Virus record (IMG/VR): IMGVR_UViG_3300005542_000007
Coordinates: 77,878 to 141,877 of that record
Origin: a virus
Reading direction: 5' to 3' (one strand)
Length of the DNA: 64,000 nucleotides
Shown here: piece after piece, positions 2,770 through 56,813 of the stretch
Layout: every line of letters begins with the position of its first letter
Position numbering within the stretch: position 1 is the first letter of the stretch
Notes under the pieces: generated by a model
What the model was told of the DNA's origin: nothing
Database searches by the model: none
The model's input: the letters and a program-made list of their open reading frames with translations, nothing else
Made by a program: the position numbers and the translations under genes

Positions 2770-3125
2770 CCGAGTCAGTTCCCTTCCGTGAGCTTTGGGT
2801 CGTATCCAAAGCTCTGCATGTATCTCCCTTCTCTGAAACCATCTCGAATCTCTCTCAAGCCGAATTTATGTGGGTTTTAATGAACCATCTCCGTGATGAA
2901 AAGGAAGAATGGGAAAAACAGGAACTTCTCTGTACGTTCATCAATCCCCAGGTCGCTTCTGCCTTATTTGGCAAGAAAGACGTGGAAACGACCGTGAGCA
3001 CCGAAGATGTGATATTTACGCAAATTAGCGAGGATTTGAGGGGTAAATACACGCCTGAAGAGCTTGCTGAGATAATGAAGAACCCCAAACACTACAGTGA
3101 ATTAGATAGAATTGAGAAGGTTTAA
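2752..3125 (+). CDS. Tail assembly chaperone C-terminal extension (GT-like) via a probable -1 frameshift
   Basis: Slippery A9 at 2752-2760. The -1 frame is open from 2754 to 3125 (TSLTESVPFRELWVVSK...). Confidence 0.7.
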
Positions 3126-3157
3126 ATTCGACTCTATTTTTAGAGCAAAAATAGCCC

Positions 3158-3186
3158 TTGACAAACTCCTCCACTTCTGTTACACT
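3158..3186 (+). promoter_or_regulatory. Sigma70-type promoter
   Basis: TTGACA-17 nt-TACACT. Confidence 0.7.
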
Positions 3187-3211
3187 AATAATGAAAGGGA
3201 GGTATAATCAA

Positions 3212-3367
3212 ATGATCGCGCTAGTAATTTTAATCGTAGCTTGTGCGTTTGTTTTTGGCAGTATCGGAAGTTTACTTAATTTAGATAGCCGTGATATAAG
3301 TACGTTAATGACATGGGGCTCAACAATAGTTATTTGCTCTTTACTTATCTATCTTGGTTTTAATTAA
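3212..3367 (+). CDS. Small two-TM membrane protein inserted in the tail operon
   Basis: GGGAGG RBS before ATG 3212, two hydrophobic stretches, own promoter. Confidence 0.6.
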   Translation: MIALVILIVACAFVFGSIGSLLNLDSRDISTLMTWGSTIVICSLLIYLGFN

Positions 3368-3452
3368 AATAAATAGTAATTTTGTATTGAAGTTTTTATA
3401 GCAGCCACTTTGTAGTTCCAACCTAACGTAGTATAATTCCGAGGATATTCCA

Positions 3453-5207
3453 TTGGTAGACCCAATATTGGGCCCTTCTGGGCAACCATTACCACCATCT
3501 AATCCGCTCCTTTCTCAGCAACCTGGGAACCTAAGTGCTACGGCAACTGTAAGCACAGGTTCTGCTCAGAGGGCTTTCGCTGAATTGCAGAAGGTTTTAG
3601 ACAACATTATGAAGTCTTTTAGTGGGAATTGGGAAAAGGCTTCTAATGATAGTTTGAAAGCCCAGGAAAGATTTTATAGGTACGTTGGGGACAAAGACAA
3701 TGAAAGAAGGGCCGCTTTAAAACGTTATAGTAATGAAGCTATAGCGGCTATAGATGAGGAAACAAAAGCTAAACTAGAAGCTTTAGATTTCGAATTACAG
3801 GCTAAAAAGAAAACTCATGAAGAAGGCGAAAGAGAAAAAACTAAAATAACCACAGAAGCTTCTAGACTCAGGTCCAATATTGAACGAGATGCTCTTCGTA
3901 AAGAAGTAGATTCTAAGAAAATTTTAAATAGAATAGGCGGTGGAATTTCGTCTGTTGGAAGCCAAATAGGAGGTCCAATAGGTGGTCTGGTTTCGGGAGT
4001 AGGAAATTTCCTTACCAACCCAGCAGAGCTTATTCCAGCCGCCATTGCTGGGTCCATTATAGAAATGATGAATACCAGGGCTGCTTTCACAGCAACTGGA
4101 GCAAGATTGGCTGGTGCTGGTTTTGGTGTTGGTGCTGGAGCAGGTGCTGGATTAGATTTTACAACTGGACTTTTTGGCGGTCCCATTAGCCCATTTGGTC
4201 GTTCTTTATCGCAGTCGCAGCAACGAGATATTATAAGTAATATGGCTGGGTCGCGTACAATGATTGACCAAGCCAGAGCCGCTGGTGGAATGGATGTTCT
4301 CAGAGGAAATCTTGGACTTTTTGCCAACATTCTTCCCGACGCTTCCAAAGAGATGGAGTTGTTTACTGATGCTACGAAGACCTTGGGAATGTCCCAAAAG
4401 GATATTTCTGGTACGTTCATGTCTTCTCGTGTAAATGCAGAAAGATTAAAAATAACACAACTCGATGCAATCTCAACGCAGATAGAAATGCAGAGAGCCC
4501 TTCGTAATATTACAAATGATGGGACTGTCGCTGCAAGTGTTTTATTTAATGTTGGTGGGTTTTTAAAGGGTATTGGTACTTCTGAAGCAGAACGTCAACG
4601 CATAACTCTTGGTATTGCTCAGGCTGGAGCTAATCTTTCTCTTCCACAAATAGCTGGTATGCTTGCTTTCACCAGAGGAATGAGTCCAACTGGTCAGGGT
4701 ATGGAACGTGCCATTTTTGGAACCAATGGTGCTGGTGGAATGTTGGGCAATAAAGGTACTGGCGTATTTGGGTTGATGGGAGAGTTTTTCAATAAAGTTG
4801 GTGGACAAGCAAAAGATCCTATGCAGCGCTTGTTTATCGCAGATGCCATGAATCGGCAATTTGGGCTCGGACTTCGTACTCAGGATATTCCACAATTTTT
4901 CAATCTGTCTGAAAGACTAAGAACAGGTGGAATGAATGAAAGGGAATATTCTAAACAGGTAGAATCTTTAACAAAACAAGCCAAAGCGATTACAATTGAA
5001 GGTATGGATAAACTGGTAAATGTTGTTAATCCCATAACACAACTTGAGAATGTATTCACAAATTTTTGGACAAAGATGGATCAACTTCTTTCTAAATATT
5101 TTGGAGATGCGACACATCCAAAAAATTATTTGCACAACGCCCCTAGAAAAAGTACTGATCGTAAACCTACTGCTGGACATGGGTTTGATGTGTATAAGGG
5201 GTTCTAA
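3453..5207 (+). CDS. Tape measure protein
   Basis: Follows the chaperones. Helical N-terminus and Gly/Ala-rich hydrophobic segments. Confidence 0.7.
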   Translation: MVDPILGPSGQPLPPSNPLLSQQPGNLSATATVSTGSAQRAFAELQKVLDNIMKSFSGNWEKASNDSLKAQERFYRYVGDKDNERRAALKRYSNEAIAAIDEETKAKLEALDFELQAKKKTHEEGEREKTKITTEASRLRSNIERDALRKEVDSKKILNRIGGGISSVGSQIGGPIGGLVSGVGNFLTNPAELIPAAIAGSIIEMMNTRAAFTATGARLAGAGFGVGAGAGAGLDFTTGLFGGPISPFGRSLSQSQQRDIISNMAGSRTMIDQARAAGGMDVLRGNLGLFANILPDASKEMELFTDATKTLGMSQKDISGTFMSSRVNAERLKITQLDAISTQIEMQRALRNITNDGTVAASVLFNVGGFLKGIGTSEAERQRITLGIAQAGANLSLPQIAGMLAFTRGMSPTGQGMERAIFGTNGAGGMLGNKGTGVFGLMGEFFNKVGGQAKDPMQRLFIADAMNRQFGLGLRTQDIPQFFNLSERLRTGGMNEREYSKQVESLTKQAKAITIEGMDKLVNVVNPITQLENVFTNFWTKMDQLLSKYFGDATHPKNYLHNAPRKSTDRKPTAGHGFDVYKGF

Positions 5208-33898: not shown

Positions 33899-34303
33899 AT
33901 GGCTTCAAAAGAATATATGCGTAATTGGTACTTAAAAAATAGGGAAAGAAATTTGGAGAAGGCCAAAATTTATCGTCAATCTTATCCAGGGGCTCAACGA
34001 ATGAGAGAAAAACGTTTACGTGGGCAGACATTTATAAATGAAGCAAAAAATAAACCTTGTATGGATTGTGGTGTTCGTTATGCTTCTTGGATAATGCAGT
34101 TTGACCACAGAGATCCAACACAAAAGAGATTTACAATTTCATCTTCTACTTCCCGTTCCTTTGTAGATTTACAAATTGAAATGGATAAATGCGATGTTGT
34201 ATGTGCTAATTGTCATGCAGAAAGAACGCATAAATTAGGTAAATTGTTTAGACCAGGAAGACCAGTCGCGGAACGGAAATATACTAAAAGGAGTCCAAAG
34301 TGA
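33899..34303 (+). CDS. HNH endonuclease
   Basis: PCMDCG...MQFDHRDP..K...CDVVCANCH..RT. Confidence 0.85.
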   Translation: MASKEYMRNWYLKNRERNLEKAKIYRQSYPGAQRMREKRLRGQTFINEAKNKPCMDCGVRYASWIMQFDHRDPTQKRFTISSSTSRSFVDLQIEMDKCDVVCANCHAERTHKLGKLFRPGRPVAERKYTKRSPK

Positions 34304-34926
34304 ATATTATCCCCACTGTGGTAGAAAAAATGACCGGAGCGGGGTCAATGGTTTCCTACGACCTCCTTTCCCGTTTGATGCAAGATAGAATTTTATTCGT
34401 AGGTGGCAATCACGGAGCCATAAGTTTGGACGATGCTAATATCCTAATTTCGCAGCTTCTTTATTTGGATTCGATTGACCCAGGTAAGAAAATTGAAATG
34501 TACATCAATTCTCCAGGTGGGGAGGTTTCAGCGGGCCTTGCTATTCTGGATACAATGAATCACATCCAAAGTCCTATCACGACAATCTGTTTAGGAATGG
34601 CAATGTCTTTTGGGGCTGTTCTATTGAGTGCTGGGGAACCGGGAAAACGTTTTGCTCTTCCAAATGCCCGTATCATGATTCACCAACCATTGATTTCTGG
34701 AGGTGGGATATCGGGTCAGGCGACTGACATTGAAATTGAAGCAAAGGAAATGACTCATTGCAAAACATCCCTTACAAAAATCCTCGCAGCCAACTGCAAT
34801 CAGAAATACGAGAAGGTTTTGAAGGATTGCGAACGCAATTTTTATATGTCAGCAGAGGAAGCAAAAGAGTATGGGTTGATTGATAACGTGATTGTTCCGC
34901 ACAGGAAATTGGATAAACACGTTTAG
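34300..34926 (+). CDS. clpP: ATP-dependent Clp protease proteolytic subunit
   Basis: SRLMQDRI, YINSPGG, AMSFGA (catalytic Ser), IMIHQP, EAKEYGLID. Confidence 0.95.
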   Translation: MNIIPTVVEKMTGAGSMVSYDLLSRLMQDRILFVGGNHGAISLDDANILISQLLYLDSIDPGKKIEMYINSPGGEVSAGLAILDTMNHIQSPITTICLGMAMSFGAVLLSAGEPGKRFALPNARIMIHQPLISGGGISGQATDIEIEAKEMTHCKTSLTKILAANCNQKYEKVLKDCERNFYMSAEEAKEYGLIDNVIVPHRKLDKHV

Positions 34927-35090
34927 AAAATGAGAAACAAGAAAAAAGCAAAACGGATAAAGAAAGCACCTAGGAAAAAGTTGGCGGTTAAACCAGCGGT
35001 AGATTGTGTCTGCCCTGAAAATGATTGGGAAACTTCTGATGAACAAAGCTTCTTTGGAAGTGGCGACTTCCTTTACGATGATCTTCTTTA

Positions 35091-35279
35091 ATGAAAACGT
35101 TGCGTAAACCAGCCATACCTTGCATTTGTGGACACAGCCGGACATCTCATAAAGGTTGGGGACATTGGAAAGTATGTATGGACCCGCTTATTGATTTTGA
35201 AGAGTGTGAATGCGATAAATATGTTCCAGACAATCTCTCTTACATAGAGAAGCTTGCAAAAAAGAAAAAGCTAGTATGA
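35091..35279 (+). CDS. DNL-tail microprotein 5
   Basis: CICGH...H...C...CEC, ending DNLSYIEKLAKKKKLV. Confidence 0.78.
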   Translation: MKTLRKPAIPCICGHSRTSHKGWGHWKVCMDPLIDFEECECDKYVPDNLSYIEKLAKKKKLV

Positions 35280-36052
35280 TAAAATTAAACGGCAGAACAA
35301 TTACTCCGACCGTATTTCCCGACCACTCTTCCCAGGTGTGGAAGGTGCCGGAAGAGTGTTTCCATGTACCAGGGAATGTCATTACTTGGGAATTTGAGAA
35401 CGAGGCTGAATTTTTACACGTCGCACAACTCAAGGACCTTATCCACAGCGTGGTGGGATATGGGGAAGTGATTTTGGACCTTCCCTACCTTCCTTACGCA
35501 AGACAGGATAAAGAAGTTTCAAATAAATCGACCTTTGCACTGCATACGTTTGCAAGGTTGTTAAATTCATTGGAATTTACGAAGGTTGTGGTTTTTGACG
35601 CACACAACTACTCTTTGTCGTATGAGTTGATTAATTGTCTCGACATTGTTATCCCGGACATCGAACCTCTTGCCAAAGAATTAAATGCTACGGTTGTATA
35701 CCCAGATTCTGGTGCCGGGACACGCTACCAAGATTCTTCAGTTGGGGACGTTATCATTTGTGAGAAAGAAAGAGATCCCTTGACAGGTGAAATCAAAGGT
35801 CTTTTAATCAACGATAACATTGAAGCCGGAACTTATTTGATTGCGGATGACATTTGCGACGGTGGCAGGACGTTCATTGAAGTGGCTAAGAAGCTTTACA
35901 AATTCGGAGCTACAGAAGTGCATTTGTATGTGTCACATGGGATTTTTTCAAAAGGGCTGCAAGTATTACGAGATGCTGGAATCAAACGAATCTTTACACG
36001 AAAAGGAGAAGTACATGAGCAACGATTATTTGCCAGCGACACTACTGTGTGA
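35276..36052 (+). CDS. prs: PRPP synthetase homolog (Adps-like, NARP1)
   Basis: FPD, PYLPYARQDK, PD.GA, DDICDGGRTF, YVSHGIFS. Confidence 0.88.
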   Translation: MIKLNGRTITPTVFPDHSSQVWKVPEECFHVPGNVITWEFENEAEFLHVAQLKDLIHSVVGYGEVILDLPYLPYARQDKEVSNKSTFALHTFARLLNSLEFTKVVVFDAHNYSLSYELINCLDIVIPDIEPLAKELNATVVYPDSGAGTRYQDSSVGDVIICEKERDPLTGEIKGLLINDNIEAGTYLIADDICDGGRTFIEVAKKLYKFGATEVHLYVSHGIFSKGLQVLRDAGIKRIFTRKGEVHEQRLFASDTTV

Positions 36053-37526
36053 TTTCTACAAGGTCAGCCACCGCGCCCAGTATCCAAAAGGGACGGAAGT
36101 GGTGTATTCAACGTGGACGCCAAGAACATCTCGTTTACTCGACGTTCAGGAAGTGGTTCACTTTGGTGCCCAGGCATTCATCAAAGAATTCCTGATTGAA
36201 TTCTTCAACAAGAATTTCTTTGAGCGAGAGCAGGAAGATGTTGTGAACGAATACAAACGAGTGATTCAGTATGCTTTGGGTGATTCTGCTCCCGCCTTTG
36301 AGCACATTATTGAATTGCACAATTTGGGTTACTTACCGCTTAAAATTAAATCGTTGCCAGAAGGCTCCGTGGTTCCTCTTAGGGTTCCTACATTAACAGT
36401 TCAAAATACCCATCCTAAGTTTTTCTGGCTCACCAACTATATTGAAACTCTCCTTTCTGCCGAGATGTGGCAAGCTTCCACTTCCGCCACAATTGCCAGA
36501 GAGTATCGAAGAGTGTTTGAAAAGTACGCTTTGGAAACGGCTGGCGGTATTGATTTCGTTCAGTTTCAAGGCCACGACTTCTCTATGCGTGGTATGGGAA
36601 CAGTAGCATCTGCCATAAAGAGCGGCATGGGACATCTGCTTTCTTTTGCAGGAACGGATACAATTCCAGCAATTCTGGGCTTGGAGCATTACTACAACGC
36701 CAACATTGAAAAGGAATTGGTTGGTACTTCAATCCCTGCTACAGAGCATTCTGTGATGTGTGCTAATGGTCGTGATGAATTCGCCGCTTATAAACGAATT
36801 ATTACAGAGGTATACCCCAAGGGATTTGTATCTATTGTGTCGGATACTTGGGATTTGTGGGAAGTGTTGGATAAAGTAGTTCGTCCTTTGAAGGACACAA
36901 TCCTTGCTCGTGAAGGCAAAGTAGTTATTCGTCCAGATAGCGGAGACCCAGTTAAGATTGTTACGGGCGACCCAGAAGGAAAGACAGAGGCAGCACGTAA
37001 AGGCGTAATTGAAATCCTGTGGGATATTTTTGGCGGCACGTATAACATTGTATGGGACGGTGAGAAAAATGTTGGATACAGGCAACTCGACCCACACATT
37101 GGTTGTATTTATGGGGATGCTATTACTCGAACTCGTGCTCAGGATATTTGTGAAAGGCTAAAGGCAAAAGGCTTTGCCTCGACCAATATGGTATACGGCA
37201 TTGGCTCTTATACATACCAGTATAATACTCGTGATACTTTTGGGTATGCTATGAAGAGTACCCTTTGTGTTATTAACGGGCAAGAAGTTCAAATCTTCAA
37301 AGATCCTGTTACAGATAACGGAGTAAAAAAGTCACAGAAAGGTGGAGTAAGAGTATTCGAACATAATGGAGAATTAGTATATTTGGATCAATTTTCCTTG
37401 GCCGAATCTAATGAAAACACACTGCTAAGGGATGTATTCGTCGATGGTAAACTATTGGTGGATGAGAAGTTTTCAGATATCAAGGCAAGAGTTCTTCAAT
37501 CGTTGGAACAAAAAGCTTCTGTATGA
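36015..37526 (+). CDS. nadV: Nicotinamide phosphoribosyltransferase homolog (Namat-like, NARP1)
   Basis: DFYKVSH..QYP, HDFSMRG, PATEHSVM, VSDTWD, IRPDSGDP, GIGS, KDPVTD..KKS. Confidence 0.92.
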   Translation: MSNDYLPATLLCDFYKVSHRAQYPKGTEVVYSTWTPRTSRLLDVQEVVHFGAQAFIKEFLIEFFNKNFFEREQEDVVNEYKRVIQYALGDSAPAFEHIIELHNLGYLPLKIKSLPEGSVVPLRVPTLTVQNTHPKFFWLTNYIETLLSAEMWQASTSATIAREYRRVFEKYALETAGGIDFVQFQGHDFSMRGMGTVASAIKSGMGHLLSFAGTDTIPAILGLEHYYNANIEKELVGTSIPATEHSVMCANGRDEFAAYKRIITEVYPKGFVSIVSDTWDLWEVLDKVVRPLKDTILAREGKVVIRPDSGDPVKIVTGDPEGKTEAARKGVIEILWDIFGGTYNIVWDGEKNVGYRQLDPHIGCIYGDAITRTRAQDICERLKAKGFASTNMVYGIGSYTYQYNTRDTFGYAMKSTLCVINGQEVQIFKDPVTDNGVKKSQKGGVRVFEHNGELVYLDQFSLAESNENTLLRDVFVDGKLLVDEKFSDIKARVLQSLEQKASV

Positions 37527-37715: not shown

Positions 37716-37913
37716 ATGAACAAGCGTGTTGCTTACCTCTACATTCTCACAGTATTCTTTGTTGTGGGATTTTATCTGTTTGGTAAGGGTGAAGTATTTG
37801 GAATAGAAAGATACAAACACAGCAAAAATATGTATGGAGCCCTCAAAGCAGCTTATCGAATGGGATACGAAGATGCTAAAGCAGGGCGTTCTATGGACTG
37901 GGATGGGGAATAA
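37716..37913 (+). CDS. Small membrane protein
   Basis: N-terminal TM helix, coupled ORF. Confidence 0.5.
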   Translation: MNKRVAYLYILTVFFVVGFYLFGKGEVFGIERYKHSKNMYGALKAAYRMGYEDAKAGRSMDWDGE

Positions 37914-38836
37914 TGAAAGACCTTATTATGTCGGATGACATTCCTCCCAAACCCATAGGAATTACGAATGGGACTATTACGCTAATGGAAGATGCTTCAG
38001 GACTTGCTAGTAAATTGGTTGTTCAATATCATTACAGCCATAAAACTACTCCCAATCATTTTTTAAGTTTTCTCGTTAATAAGGACCAGGGCGCTTTACA
38101 GTTGGGGTATGGTATTCGTCCTGCTATGAAGCATACCATTTCCAAAGATATTGTAAAGGGTAACTATTGCGAGTTTGATAGGATGTGGTTAAGTGATGTG
38201 ATGCCAAAGAATAGTGAAAGCCAAGTTATCGCCTTGTTGTTGAGTTACTTAAAACAAGTACACCCGAGAATTAAATTCGTTATTACTTATGCGGATGAAA
38301 GTGTGGGTAATAAAGGTACAATTTATCAAGCTACCAATGCTATAGAACTTCCCAGTGTTCCAACGGATTTTTACTTGCTTCCTTCTGGTGAACGTATTCA
38401 TCCTGTAACAATGTGGCATAGGCACAAAACCAGAGCAAAAGCTTTTGTAGAGAAACAGTATCCCGGTATTAAACACATTAAAGGAACGTATAAACAACGA
38501 CGTTATTTATACATTCTTAATAACGGTTTGCGGAGAAAGTTTCAAGAGCGAAACGATGTGCTTCCAGCACATAAGGCGAAGTGCGATTCTTCGGCTCCGC
38601 TCCAATTTAAGCAAACTAAAAGTGACGTTATTTTTAAAGAGGTGTTTGATATGAAAAAATTCAATGAAGAATACCCAAAAGTGGTAGAAGGACTGCGGTT
38701 ATTTTTAGGCGAAATTTACCTTGCCTTGGAAGAGGGCAAAACCATTTCTAAGGATAATTTTGCCGAGGGTTGCAAAATGCATTTAGGAAACTTAAAACAG
38801 TTTATTAGCGACAATGAAACCCAACGCCCTAACTAA
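37913..38836 (+). CDS. Mom-family (GNAT-like) DNA adenine-modification enzyme; frame reads through an embedded tRNA and a probable second cistron starting at 38651
   Basis: VQYHYSHK, EFDRMWL.D..PKNSES, ITYADESVG.KGTIYQATN, RRYLYIL motifs. Confidence 0.82.
   Translation: MKDLIMSDDIPPKPIGITNGTITLMEDASGLASKLVVQYHYSHKTTPNHFLSFLVNKDQGALQLGYGIRPAMKHTISKDIVKGNYCEFDRMWLSDVMPKNSESQVIALLLSYLKQVHPRIKFVITYADESVGNKGTIYQATNAIELPSVPTDFYLLPSGERIHPVTMWHRHKTRAKAFVEKQYPGIKHIKGTYKQRRYLYILNNGLRRKFQERNDVLPAHKAKCDSSAPLQFKQTKSDVIFKEVFDMKKFNEEYPKVVEGLRLFLGEIYLALEEGKTISKDNFAEGCKMHLGNLKQFISDNETQRPN
38530..38604 (+). tRNA. Non-canonical tRNA-Gly(TCC) embedded in the Mom-like ORF
   Basis: Acceptor GCGGAGA/GCTCCGC plus T73 plus CCA. 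D stem GTTT/AAAC. Anticodon arm ATGTG-CTTCCAG-CACAT. T arm CGAAG-TGCGATT-CTTCG. Confidence 0.82.
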
Positions 38837-39691: not shown

Positions 39692-40864
39692 TTGCGATCC
39701 CTCTACCTTTTAGCAATTCTCATTTTCTTTAACCAGGGCATTGGCTCTCTTGCTGCCCAACCTCTCTACTACTTCCTTCGGGAAACACTTGGAATTGGCA
39801 TTCCCACAATTATGATGCTTGGGGCACTTGCCAATCTTCCCTGGCTGATTAAACCCGTATGGGGATTCCTCAGTGATTCATTCAGCATTTTTGGATATCG
39901 TAGGAAGAGTTACATTATTTTGTTTTCTCTTTTAGGGACGGTTTCTTTTCTTCTTATCGGTCTTTCACCGTTTATTTCCCTTCCCGTTCTTGTCGGTCTG
40001 ATGATTTTAGGGTCGATTGGAGAAGCGGGCGGGAATGTAGCCGTAAATGGTATGGGGGTAGAAGAGGGAAACAAGGATGGAACGACAGGTAAGTTTCAGA
40101 GTGTTTGTTGGGGAGCATTGGGTGTGGGTTCCGTTCTTACTGGAGTTACGGGCGGTTACATAGCGGAAAAAGCCTCATACCACCTTGCTTTCGTTATATT
40201 GGCTCTTTTCCCTATCCTGATTGCTGTAATGGCCCTCCGGCATCCAGAGCAGAAAGCAGAAGCTTCACATAAAGCTGTAGGACCCATAATTAAAGACTTT
40301 CTAATAAAATTAAAAAATAAGCAGATTTTCCTTTGCAGCTTGTTTTTATTTTTCCTTTGGTTCAGCCCCTCTTTTGGAACACCCCTTTTGGACAGGATGC
40401 GAACAGTGCTCCACATGTCAAAAGTATGGATTGGCTGGCTTGACACGATTGGGTCTGCTTGCGGAATTGTCGGAGCTATGGTATACTTTAAAGTGAGTAA
40501 GAGTATAAACATGAAGCGTTGGTTGTACTACGGAACGGTCTTAAGTGCTTTGGCTACGTTTGCGTATTTGTACCTGACACCCACCACTTTGTTTTGGTAC
40601 ACAATAGTGTTTGGGGTAGCTTCACAGTTCATTCATTTGTTGATGCTGAATCTTATGGCGATGACTTGTCCAGAGGGAACGGAAGCAACCACGTATGCTT
40701 TGCTGTGTTCCCTTGTTAATTGTGCATCTTTCTTTTCTAATTTGGTTGGAGCTAAATGCTTCGCTCTATTTGGGTATAACGGGTTGATTATTATTTCAGG
40801 AGTGACAACGCTCATGTGTTTGGGATTCATTCCGTATCTTGAGGTAAACAAAAATGTCTTGTAA
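39692..40864 (+). CDS. MFS transporter, BT1 (folate/biopterin)-like
   Basis: LPWLIKPVWGFLSDSFSIFGYRRKSY and CPEGTEATTYALL motifs, about 12 TM segments. Confidence 0.82.
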   Translation: MRSLYLLAILIFFNQGIGSLAAQPLYYFLRETLGIGIPTIMMLGALANLPWLIKPVWGFLSDSFSIFGYRRKSYIILFSLLGTVSFLLIGLSPFISLPVLVGLMILGSIGEAGGNVAVNGMGVEEGNKDGTTGKFQSVCWGALGVGSVLTGVTGGYIAEKASYHLAFVILALFPILIAVMALRHPEQKAEASHKAVGPIIKDFLIKLKNKQIFLCSLFLFFLWFSPSFGTPLLDRMRTVLHMSKVWIGWLDTIGSACGIVGAMVYFKVSKSINMKRWLYYGTVLSALATFAYLYLTPTTLFWYTIVFGVASQFIHLLMLNLMAMTCPEGTEATTYALLCSLVNCASFFSNLVGAKCFALFGYNGLIIISGVTTLMCLGFIPYLEVNKNVL

Positions 40865-42813: not shown

Positions 42814-43605
42814 ATGAGTTTACTTAAACACATTTACAATTGGCGTAGGGATCTTCCAGACTGGAGAGATAAACGATACAGGGAGCATCGTTTGCTTGGA
42901 GCGTTGCCTCCCCCACCTCCAATAGTGGATTTGCGTCAACAATGCAGCCCAGTGGAAGACCAAGGACAATTGGGTTCCTGTACATCCTTTGCTTGGGCAG
43001 GAATGCTTGAGTTTCTTGAATTGCAAGCTTTAAATAATAAAGTTGCTTCTCCTGAAATCCTCACCCCAACTTATACGCCCTTCTCCCATCTTTTCATTTA
43101 TTACAATGAACGCTTTATTGATGGGGATGTGAGTCAAGATGGTGGATCACAATTGAGGACAGGAGCACAGGCTGTTGCAACTTATGGAGACTGTAGTGAA
43201 CCCACTTGGCCGTATCAGATTGAACAGGTATTTGTTAAACCCTCTGATGTTGCTTTTGCTGAAGCAGCTAATCACAAAATCAGCGTCTACTCCAGGCTGG
43301 AATCGGCTGAGGATTACAAAGCGTGTTTAGCTGAAGGATTTCCTTTTGTATTTGGTGCGACCTTATACGAGAGTTTTGAAAGTGGAGTTATAGCTTCCAC
43401 AGGTATTGTTCCAATGCCTTCAATGAACGAAAGTGACATTGGTGGACACGCAATCCTTTGTGTTGGGTACGATGAAACAAAGCAGCATTATATTGTGCGT
43501 AATTCTTGGGGAACGGGCTGGGGCGATAAAGGGTATTGTTACTTTCCAATGGAATATATGGAAAACCCAGACCTTTGTTCAGATATGTGGACGGCAAGGA
43601 AATAG
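42814..43605 (+). CDS. Papain-like C1 cysteine peptidase
   Basis: DQGQLGSC, GGHAILCVGY, RNSWG..WG..GY. Confidence 0.92.
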   Translation: MSLLKHIYNWRRDLPDWRDKRYREHRLLGALPPPPPIVDLRQQCSPVEDQGQLGSCTSFAWAGMLEFLELQALNNKVASPEILTPTYTPFSHLFIYYNERFIDGDVSQDGGSQLRTGAQAVATYGDCSEPTWPYQIEQVFVKPSDVAFAEAANHKISVYSRLESAEDYKACLAEGFPFVFGATLYESFESGVIASTGIVPMPSMNESDIGGHAILCVGYDETKQHYIVRNSWGTGWGDKGYCYFPMEYMENPDLCSDMWTARK

Positions 43606-55866: not shown

Positions 55867-56452
55867 GCTTGGAAAGCTGGAAGCAATAACTGCGTCTCTC
55901 CAAGCTTGCCAGAATCGGGTACAGGAATTGGAATTGACCCAGGATACGGTAGAAAAAGCGTCTCTCTTTCTCCAATCCCTGAGCGACACCGCCCGTATAC
56001 AAGTAATTGAGAAAATCTCAGGGCTTGTCACCGAAGTGTTGCAAGCGGTTAAAGATAAAAATTTAACGTTTAAGATGGAGTTAGGAACAGAGAGAGGACA
56101 GCCGGATTTGAAATTCTTTGTTGTAGACAGCTTGACAGGCAAAGATATGGATGTGTTGGAAAGCTGTGGTGGTGGGATAGCCGATTTGGTTAGCTTCGCA
56201 TTGAGAGTGTCTTTGCTTTTGAAATGGCGACCATCTCTTGAGCGCGTTCTTATTTGTGATGAACAGCTTAAATTTGTTAGTGTGCAGGACCAGGAATTGG
56301 CCGGGGAGTTTATTAGAAAGCTTTCAGAGCAGCTTGGGTTGCAAATAATTTTCATTTCGCATTCAAAAACACTGGCAGAAAAAGCACATAAGACGTTCGA
56401 GGTGGTAAAGGAAAATGGAATCAGCAGAATCGAAGAAAGAACTTCTCTTTAG
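55826..56452 (+). CDS. sbcC: SbcC/Rad50 C-terminal half
   Basis: Signature-like ESCGGG, Walker B LICDE, FISH H-loop. Confidence 0.82.
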
Positions 56453-56813
56453 TATTACACGGAAAGATTTCCGTGTGGATACCTTTCGCTCAGGCGGTAA
56501 AGGAGGCCAGAATCAGAACAAAGTTGAATCTGGCGTTCGTATCACTCATTTGGAATCTGGAGCAGTAGCAGAATCTAGGGAAGAACGTGATCAGATTCGC
56601 AATAAAGAGAAAGCCTTCCAGAAGCTGATTAACACGCCAAAGTTTAAAGTTTGGCACAAACGAAAGACGGCATTTATGTTGCAAGGTATTCGAGATGCTG
56701 AGGCAGAAATAGAACGCAGGGTGAATGAAGCTTTAAAGCCAGAAAATTTAAAGGTAGAAGGCAAAGATGAAGAAGGTCGTTGGACCAAAGAAGCTTTTAA
56801 CGAAAATGAGTGA
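56415..56813 (+). CDS. Stand-alone GGQ peptide-release-factor-like protein
   Basis: [22 protein letters not shown]...R.Q..NK..A. Confidence 0.88.

Follow-up and report, generated by a model that had tools for sequence, protein, structure and literature searches.

Why would the reading frame of a phage DNA-modification gene run, without a stop, through a complete tRNA-like cloverleaf? The question is raised by a stretch of 64,000 nucleotides (nt), referred to here as the window, which covers positions 77,878 to 141,877 of the IMG/VR virus record IMGVR_UViG_3300005542_000007. Within it, an open reading frame (ORF) for a homologue of the Mu protein Mom passes in frame through the whole of a 75-nt tRNA-Gly-like element and continues to position 38836, with no stop anywhere between the Mom core and that point. 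The original prediction, made from the letters of the window, took enzyme and RNA to be a DNA hypermodification system in which the RNA is a private, non-translational donor of glycine. The analysis presented here supports that reading: the element is a real RNA gene, it belongs to a family of which 105 distinct relatives were collected from viral and metagenome contigs, and it is probably a dedicated tRNA-Gly that would serve as glycyl donor for Mom.

A tRNA-Gly-like RNA inside the frame of a Mom-family gene

The protein encoded upstream of the RNA belongs to the Mom family, as the original prediction had proposed. Residues 31–213 match the Pfam family PF25680 (Mom) with 139 bits against a cut-off of 27.1 (E 2.2e-40), the ORF is also matched by PHROG 1384 ('Mom-like DNA modification protein'), and the crystal structure of Mu Mom (PDB 8bv8) aligns to residues 30–211 with an E value of 2.3e-21. 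This alignment, which is one of sequence alone, crosses the helix-turn-helix-like insertion (Mu residues ~175–209) with single-residue gaps only. Residues R111 and S124 of Mu Mom have been reported to be essential (Silva et al., Nat Commun 2026, PMC13219725; bioRxiv 10.1101/2023.03.24.534169). Their equivalents in the window protein, Arg90 and Ser103 (Table 1), are separated by the same 13 residues as in Mu Mom, the offset of the Mu numbering having been inferred from the S124A substitution in the 8bv8 crystal construct. Given that both residues are matched, the Mom protein of the window is probably competent, and as a clear member of the Mu Mom family it is presumed to share the same chemistry and class of co-substrate. 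Since the Mom profile extends to residue 213, the first 22 nt of the tRNA-like element also encode a basic tail at the C terminus of Mom (LRRKFQER).

The cloverleaf is the minimum-free-energy fold of the element (-26.8 kcal/mol, z -2.3, computed with RNAfold). Its acceptor stem consists of six base pairs (G1–G6 with C67–C72) and an A7.G66 mismatch, and is followed by A8 and A9. The D stem has five pairs (GUUUC/GAAAC) and a loop of 6 nt, whereas the anticodon stem (AUGUG/CACAU) is lengthened to six pairs by C32-G38, with a 5-nt loop U33-U34-C35-C36-A37. The variable region measures 4 nt, and the 5-bp T stem (CGAAG/CUUCG, including A51-U63) carries the T-loop UGCGAUU. Sequence, fold and ORF list thus bear out the 75-nt, in-frame, stop-free cloverleaf with anticodon TCC and an encoded CCA that had been described before. 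All the bases that make up the identity set of bacterial glycyl-tRNA synthetase (GlyRS), as listed in PMC7826273, are present in the window element, namely G1-C72, C2-G71, G3-C70, U73, C35 and C36. From the canonical core it departs at A8, A18, G55 and the Watson-Crick pair C32-G38. The identity set, A8, the A7.G66 mismatch, the A51-U63 pair and the altered T-loop had all been pointed out in the original prediction and can be read directly in the sequence; the same is true of the three tRNAs at 25.4–25.6 kb, which are canonical in having U8, the D-loop GG and a UUCGA T-loop.

Searches with standard tools placed the element outside the ordinary tRNAs. ARAGORN made no call at 38530–38604 with default settings and, when relaxed to a 90% threshold as the original prediction had advised, called a tRNA-Gly(tcc) of exactly the same 75 bases. 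The Rfam tRNA model RF00005 gave no match at E<=10, whether the surrounding sequence that was scanned measured 501 nt or 96 nt, and a blastn comparison of the locus with 50,697 phage records returned zero matches. The promoter scan found nothing above chance at the locus, and the terminator scan found none 3' of the element. Against a covariance model trained partly on the window element itself, the element scored 88.7 bits.

The element belongs to a covarying RNA family

Among 35 viral contigs with close Mom relatives, a cloverleaf was found directly after Mom in three and one gene further in two more. A MAFFT-only alignment of six copies was 94.7% paired, with compensatory changes in 12 of the 22 pairs, and from these six copies the covariance model R1 was built. 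The DNA pattern used to collect relatives fixed GCGG, A8, the frame of the D stem and the CCA at positions 35–37, which corresponds to C35, C36 and A37 and is distinct from the terminal CCA. It left free the columns that covary, as well as U73 and the 3' strand of the acceptor stem. Of 51 pattern matches in viral contigs, 50 were strong covariance-model matches at 64–90 bits, so that with the 88.7 bits of the window element chance is far exceeded. Metagenome contigs contained at least 76 strong model matches, all among the 80 loci listed. Bacterial and archaeal genomes yielded 27 pattern matches, of which only four were real, all in contigs of metagenome-assembled genomes. An earlier pattern derived from the D arm alone had hit 14 places, the real ones being only the three already known.

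In the 34 distinct viral copies 96% of cells were paired, and the covariation score reached 0.70, compared with 0.13 after shuffling and about 0.1 in slid controls. Every pair of the anticodon stem and four of the five T-stem pairs showed compensatory changes in these copies. RNAalifold arrived at the cloverleaf de novo from a plain MAFFT alignment of 16 diverse family members, and compensatory changes were present in 16 of the 22 pairs. Members gathered through the Mom protein alone, so as to avoid the bias of the DNA pattern, added compensatory changes in the D stem (GUGUC to GGCUC, GGAUC and GGGUC). A CCA is encoded in 15 of the 34 members (alignment A2), and ARAGORN at default settings calls about a third of the family as tRNA-Gly(tcc/acc). 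The element of the window is a real RNA gene.

Conserved glycine identity and altered decoding elements

The part of the RNA that GlyRS reads is strictly maintained. The 3' partners C69–C72 are paired throughout the 34 members, and U73 is found in 32 of them. Members found through Mom keep G1-C72, C2-G71, G3-C70, U73, C35 and C36 without exception; among them are two distant members (L196 and L198) that lie next to Mom relatives of 30–34% identity.

The anticodon loop is built differently from that of a decoding tRNA. In 98 of the 105 members, bases 32 and 38 are joined by a Watson-Crick pair that covaries (CG 42, AU 34, UA 18, GC 4), so that the loop becomes a pentaloop, N33-N34-C35-C36-A37. 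U33 occurs in only 71 of 105, about a third of the members being without it; among relatives whose Mom proteins are >90% identical, all four bases are met at position 33, and one member is short by a loop base. Position 34 is U in 55 members, A in 30, C in 20 and G in none.

Outside the anticodon arm, 7.66 is usually mismatched across the family (G.A or U.A), and position 8 is A family-wide, in a column that the DNA pattern forced. The fifth pair of the D stem is C-G where canonical tRNAs have A14 and A21. Bases 4 and 5 of the D-loop covary with T-loop positions 55-56, in the combinations AG/GC(A/G) (64 members), GG/UC(G/A) (24) and AA/GAA (3). Read from this covariation and from the A18 G19 and G55 C56 of the window, G19-C56 is probably kept and G18.U55 replaced by A18.G55, giving an elbow that is probably maintained but altered. 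The earlier statement that the element has no G18G19 therefore stands for the lost G18-U55 contact and falls for G19, which is present. Upstream of the RNA, U(-1) is found in 32 of 51 cases; bacterial RNase P prefers U(-1). Taken together, these features fit an RNA selected for a tRNA-like fold and for GlyRS recognition, and not for decoding.

Linkage of the RNA to Mom and DruA genes

A hidden Markov model built from Mom cores was searched against all loci. In 28 of the 35 viral loci counted as distinct, a Mom core is found no more than 200 nt from the RNA and without exception shares its strand; Mom is upstream of the RNA in 22 of the linked loci and downstream in about 7. Linked pairs have a median Mom identity of 24% while their RNAs are 61% identical, linkage persists over 14–25% protein identity, and the distance matrices of RNA and Mom are correlated (rho 0.27, a value matched in 0 of 2000 permutations). 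One Mom clade has the RNA in all 26 of the 26 loci with a downstream flank, and another has it within 1.5 kb only in the four closest of 73 loci. Mom homologues beside covarying tRNA-Gly variants, which the original prediction had suggested looking for, are thus clearly present.

The five viral records in which the RNA appeared unlinked were searched whole. Three of them contain Mom genes 11–30 kb from the RNA, and two, both without Pfam-Mom, contain a gene of the DruA family (DUF4338, PF14236). One of the latter (G002:C1:33096-33914; L084, L354, L357) is a complete 89-kb phage genome in which the RNA precedes the DruA domain by 220 nt and shares with it one open frame of 1103 amino acids; in the window there was no DruA match. 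As the apparently unlinked records hold a distant Mom or a DruA gene, linkage to Mom is strong but not obligatory, and it reaches a related acyltransferase family. The metagenome copies without an adjacent Mom are mostly on short contigs, or on marine contigs with AAA_5 ATPase and Hsp20 neighbours, a setting that we take to resemble that of T4-like phages.

The arrangements of the cassette vary and include Mom-Mom-tRNA-Mom arrays and tandem tRNA-Mom units. In L006 (positions 3004-5144), and with the same layout in L010, three Mom paralogues stand in a row with the RNA between the second and the third. The RNA of these two loci has the anticodon ACC or UCC and an A1.A72 or G1.A72 mismatch, and one open frame joins it to the second and third Mom. 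In L051 (7077-8843) a tRNA-Mom unit is duplicated in tandem; the RNA copies are identical, whereas the Mom copies have diverged. Two marine contigs without Mom nearby, L237 (3713-3928) and L287 (1019-1232), each carry two differing RNA copies in tandem, about 65 nt apart; one of the copies has an 8-nt anticodon loop.

The open frame through the RNA

Of the 22 distinct viral loci with Mom upstream, 21 have its frame open from one end of the RNA to the other, and this holds in all three frames, the stop usually falling 0–57 nt past the RNA; by composition, only 59% of frames would be open. Relatedness inflates the count, and about ten independent lineages are estimated to underlie it. Among the metagenome matches listed, the Mom frame is open through the RNA in 19 of 21 loci. 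The excess of open frames over the expectation from composition suggests that it is of consequence either to translate through the RNA or to have no stop ahead of it. In L053, the closest tRNA-bearing relative of the window, the Mom frame ends 6 nt past the tRNA. In the window the frame runs further, into a 61-amino acid ORF (38651–38836) that has no Pfam or PHROG match and is preceded by a Shine-Dalgarno-like sequence (Table 1); this is probably a separate small gene sharing the Mom frame by chance.

Excision of the RNA would leave the mom message without a stop codon. It is conceivable, if rather doubtful, that the position of the donor tRNA inside the Mom frame is functional in itself: each transcript would be either translated through the tRNA or cut, and the supply of the donor would thereby be coupled with self-limitation of a toxic enzyme. 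In such a coupled transcript, cutting would leave a non-stop mom message in need of ribosome rescue, possibly by the phage's small GGQ/RF-1 protein. On the same doubtful reading, clades of Mom that carry the RNA may have evolved a preference for an orthogonal, ribosome-invisible Gly-tRNA.

A probable glycyl donor for Mom and its alternatives

Mu Mom moves glycine from Gly-tRNAGly to the N6-adenine of double-stranded DNA (PMC13219725), so that the premise of the original prediction is published. Combining this chemistry with the retained GlyRS identity, the lost decoding features and the gene linkage, we consider it probable that the element is a dedicated, non-translational tRNA-Gly acting as glycyl donor for Mom. 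The RNA gene would be co-transcribed with the Mom-family gene whose 3' end overlaps it, and host RNase P and 3'-end enzymes would release it from the mom transcript. Host GlyRS would load it with glycine, as the kept G1-C72, C2-G71, G3-C70, U73, C35 and C36 suggest, and the ribosome would bypass it, as might be expected from a pentaloop closed by the 32-38 pair, a free position 33, A or C at position 34, A8, the 7.66 mismatch and a rebuilt D/T elbow. From the charged RNA, by homology and on the strength of the catalytic residues, Mom would acylate the N6 of adenine in the phage's double-stranded DNA, the product rearranging to N6-carbamoylmethyl-adenine. Structure, conservation, linkage and catalytic residues come from the present analysis and the chemistry from Mu Mom; from these we infer the processing, the charging, the exclusion from translation and the use by Mom.

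Several observations weigh against this donor role. The chemistry can do without a private tRNA, since each of the three ordinary host isoacceptors serves Mu Mom. Many close relatives of the window Mom have no such RNA nearby, among them the closest one (L001) and, in a search within 1.5 kb, about 69 of the 73 loci of one clade. Among the metagenome matches listed, Mom lies within 250 nt in only 23 of 76 copies, and in 9 of the 22 with both flanks of at least 800 nt. The pentaloop and the 7.66 mismatch might impair charging by GlyRS as well as decoding. Finally, the EF-Tu-evading character that the original prediction attributed to the RNA was not borne out. T-stem pairs 49-65, 50-64 and 51-63 tune the affinity for EF-Tu; a family-wide EF-Tu-weak T stem was sought in the 34 copies, and these pairs vary freely with no consistent signal, so that evasion of EF-Tu is without sequence support.

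The open frames raise an alternative, that the RNA acts in cis, as a tRNA-shaped part of the mom mRNA, to control the expression of Mom with no glycine donation, either through an RNase P cut that removes the stop codon and yields a non-stop message, or through a structure that sets mRNA stability or ribosome passage and so limits a toxic enzyme. The frame statistics given above for viral and metagenome loci speak for it, as do the small RF-1/GGQ-domain protein encoded by the phage, a possible rescue factor for stalled ribosomes, and the tight post-transcriptional regulation of mom in Mu. Acting alone, however, a cis element leaves unexplained the strict U73, G1-C72, C2-G71, G3-C70 and C35 C36 as well as the free variation at positions 33 and 34, and the RNA is also found upstream of Mom, between Mom paralogues and 2–30 kb from Mom in the same genome. 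We therefore regard a purely cis-acting element as unlikely, while a cis role could be compatible with that of a donor. A further possibility is that the RNA binds Mom as a partner other than a donor, whether as an inhibitor, a chaperone, an antitoxin-like substrate mimic until late infection, or a scaffold. The linkage and the partial co-divergence with Mom would fit any physical partnership, and the RNA does mimic the known co-substrate of Mom. However, the conserved C35 and C36, which GlyRS reads, would be unexplained if charging were irrelevant, and according to PMC13219725 Mom probably reads the acceptor end for the most part; a partnership of this kind appears quite improbable.

That the element is an ordinary decoding tRNA-Gly which merely happens to lie beside mom is suggested by the default ARAGORN calls for about a third of the members and by the Met, Asp, Asn and Thr tRNAs that this phage carries. 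Large phages often carry tRNAs. Such a role is nevertheless very hard to reconcile with a pentaloop closed by a covarying 32-38 pair, with the third of members that lack U33, with A34 in 30 of 105 members and a deleted loop base in one, with A8, the 7.66 mismatch and the failure to match the Rfam tRNA model, or with a Mom linkage that persists across 14–25% protein identity. We also considered, and rejected as highly implausible, a decayed integration-site remnant and a plain coding sequence for a C-terminal extension of Mom with an accidental fold. tRNA genes are common attachment sites, and in the window the element is translated in frame; against both stand a full-length cloverleaf, compensatory changes in every stem and the 105 variants. 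As the RNA is read in three frames or lies outside any Mom frame, there is no conserved peptide, and as its sequence is unlike that of canonical tRNAs, it was not copied from a host gene. The private, non-translational donor is the reading that the evidence supports best.

Relation to known systems

The formation of N6-carbamoylmethyl-deoxyadenosine in double-stranded DNA from Gly-tRNAGly has been described only for Mu Mom and two mined homologues, and Mu Mom accepts all three host tRNAGly isoacceptors and rejects Gly-tRNAAla (PMC13219725). Mu has no tRNA of its own, and its use of host isoacceptors was read by the authors as scavenging (PMC13219725); here and in many other phages, in contrast, the gene for the enzyme forms a physical fusion with that for a specialised tRNA-Gly-like RNA. 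The Mom papers, including PMC13219725, make no mention of phage-encoded tRNAs. What appears to be new is thus a known enzyme, Mom, together with what would be its own specialised donor tRNA.

A conserved 76-bp tRNA-Gly-like 'pseudo-tRNA' has been reported within a mom homologue in the ssrA genomic islands of Dehalococcoides (McMurdie et al., BMC Genomics 2011, PMC3146451). Compared by description only, it resembles the window element in being a tRNA-Gly-like cloverleaf inside the reading frame of a mom homologue. It differs in that it falls within the initial 150 bp of mom and belongs to bacterial integrative islands, whereas the window element is at the 3' end of the gene in a large phage. 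The 2011 paper (PMC3146451), which predates the discovery that Mom depends on tRNA, put forward no function for that locus.

The closest working analogy is provided by the non-proteogenic tRNAGly of Staphylococcus aureus, which serve FmhB, FemA and FemB in making the pentaglycine of peptidoglycan (Rietmeyer et al., NAR 2020/21, PMC7826273). They keep the GlyRS identity and interact poorly with EF-Tu and the ribosome, the discrimination residing in the D and T arms, and their lineage is present only in staphylococci (PMC7826273). The two share a logic, a tRNAGly reserved for a tRNA-dependent transferase, and the likeness is one of working principle, not of membership; the resemblance drawn in the original prediction accordingly holds for function and not for descent. 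Set apart by their descriptions, the window family is viral, has a pentaloop, is linked to the gene of its presumed user enzyme and would have DNA, not a peptide, as its acceptor. Staphylococcal non-proteogenic tRNAGly keep a normal 7-nt anticodon loop.

Features of the locus and genome setting

Table 1. Features of the tRNA-Gly-like RNA and the Mom-family gene (window coordinates)
Feature	Position	Strand	Basis
tRNA-Gly-like RNA gene, 75 nt	38530..38604	+	RNA fold, ARAGORN at 90% threshold, covariance models R1 and R2, covariation
Anticodon UCC; C35 and C36 are GlyRS identity bases	38563..38565	+	Sequence
C32-G38 closing pair around the anticodon	38561 and 38567	+	Sequence; covariation
Encoded 3' CCA after discriminator U73 (38601)	38602..38604	+	Sequence
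307-aa ORF: Mom, tRNA read-through, linker and in-frame small downstream gene	37913..38836	+	ORF list
Mom-family GNAT domain, aa 31-213	38003..38551	+	Pfam PF25680, PHROG 1384, PDB 8bv8
Arg90, equivalent of catalytic R111 of Mu Mom	38180..38182	+	Alignment to 8bv8
Ser103, equivalent of catalytic S124 of Mu Mom	38219..38221	+	Alignment to 8bv8 (engineered Ala there)
Shine-Dalgarno-like AAAGAGG (38636-38642) and 61-aa ORF from ATG 38651	38636..38836	+	Sequence

The window is the final 64 kb of a 141.9-kb viral record that is about 74% complete. The whole record holds one Mom gene and one copy of the tRNA-Gly-like RNA, and none of its ordinary tRNAs is for Gly. The neighbours are typical of a large phage and include ClpP, NAMPT, a BT1 transporter, a DnaB-like helicase and a primase. 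Flanking the Mom locus on the + strand, the regions 34300-37526 and 39692-40864 encode the ClpP protease, a protein with a phosphoribosyltransferase domain, NAMPT (NAD salvage) and a folate/biopterin transporter of the BT1 family, a membrane transporter that to our knowledge is unusual in a phage. Beside the replication genes, a 263-aa ORF (42814-43605, +) contains a papain-family (Peptidase_C1) cysteine protease domain. The small RF-1/GGQ protein mentioned above is a 134-aa open frame with an RF-1/GGQ peptidyl-tRNA-hydrolase domain at 56448-56636 (+; 74 bits). With it the phage may encode a ribosome-rescue factor of its own; a link between this protein and a non-stop mom message is pure speculation.

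Implications

If the element is a private donor, DNA protection in this phage would neither have to compete with translation nor depend on the condition of the host tRNA pool. Many phages would then hold a two-gene cassette for DNA hypermodification, made up of an enzyme and its own carrier of an activated amino acid, and the RNA would represent a viral tRNA family without a role in translation, in parallel to the cell-wall tRNAGly of staphylococci but with DNA as the acceptor. The same explanation would also account for the 'pseudo-tRNA' of 2011 and for many odd 'tRNA-Gly(ACC)' calls in phages. It yields testable hypotheses on which tRNA features are needed by GlyRS and Mom as against EF-Tu and the ribosome, and it would offer a naturally orthogonal pair of Gly-tRNA and enzyme. 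More generally, it serves as a warning that the tRNA counts of phage genomes are not always about codon usage.

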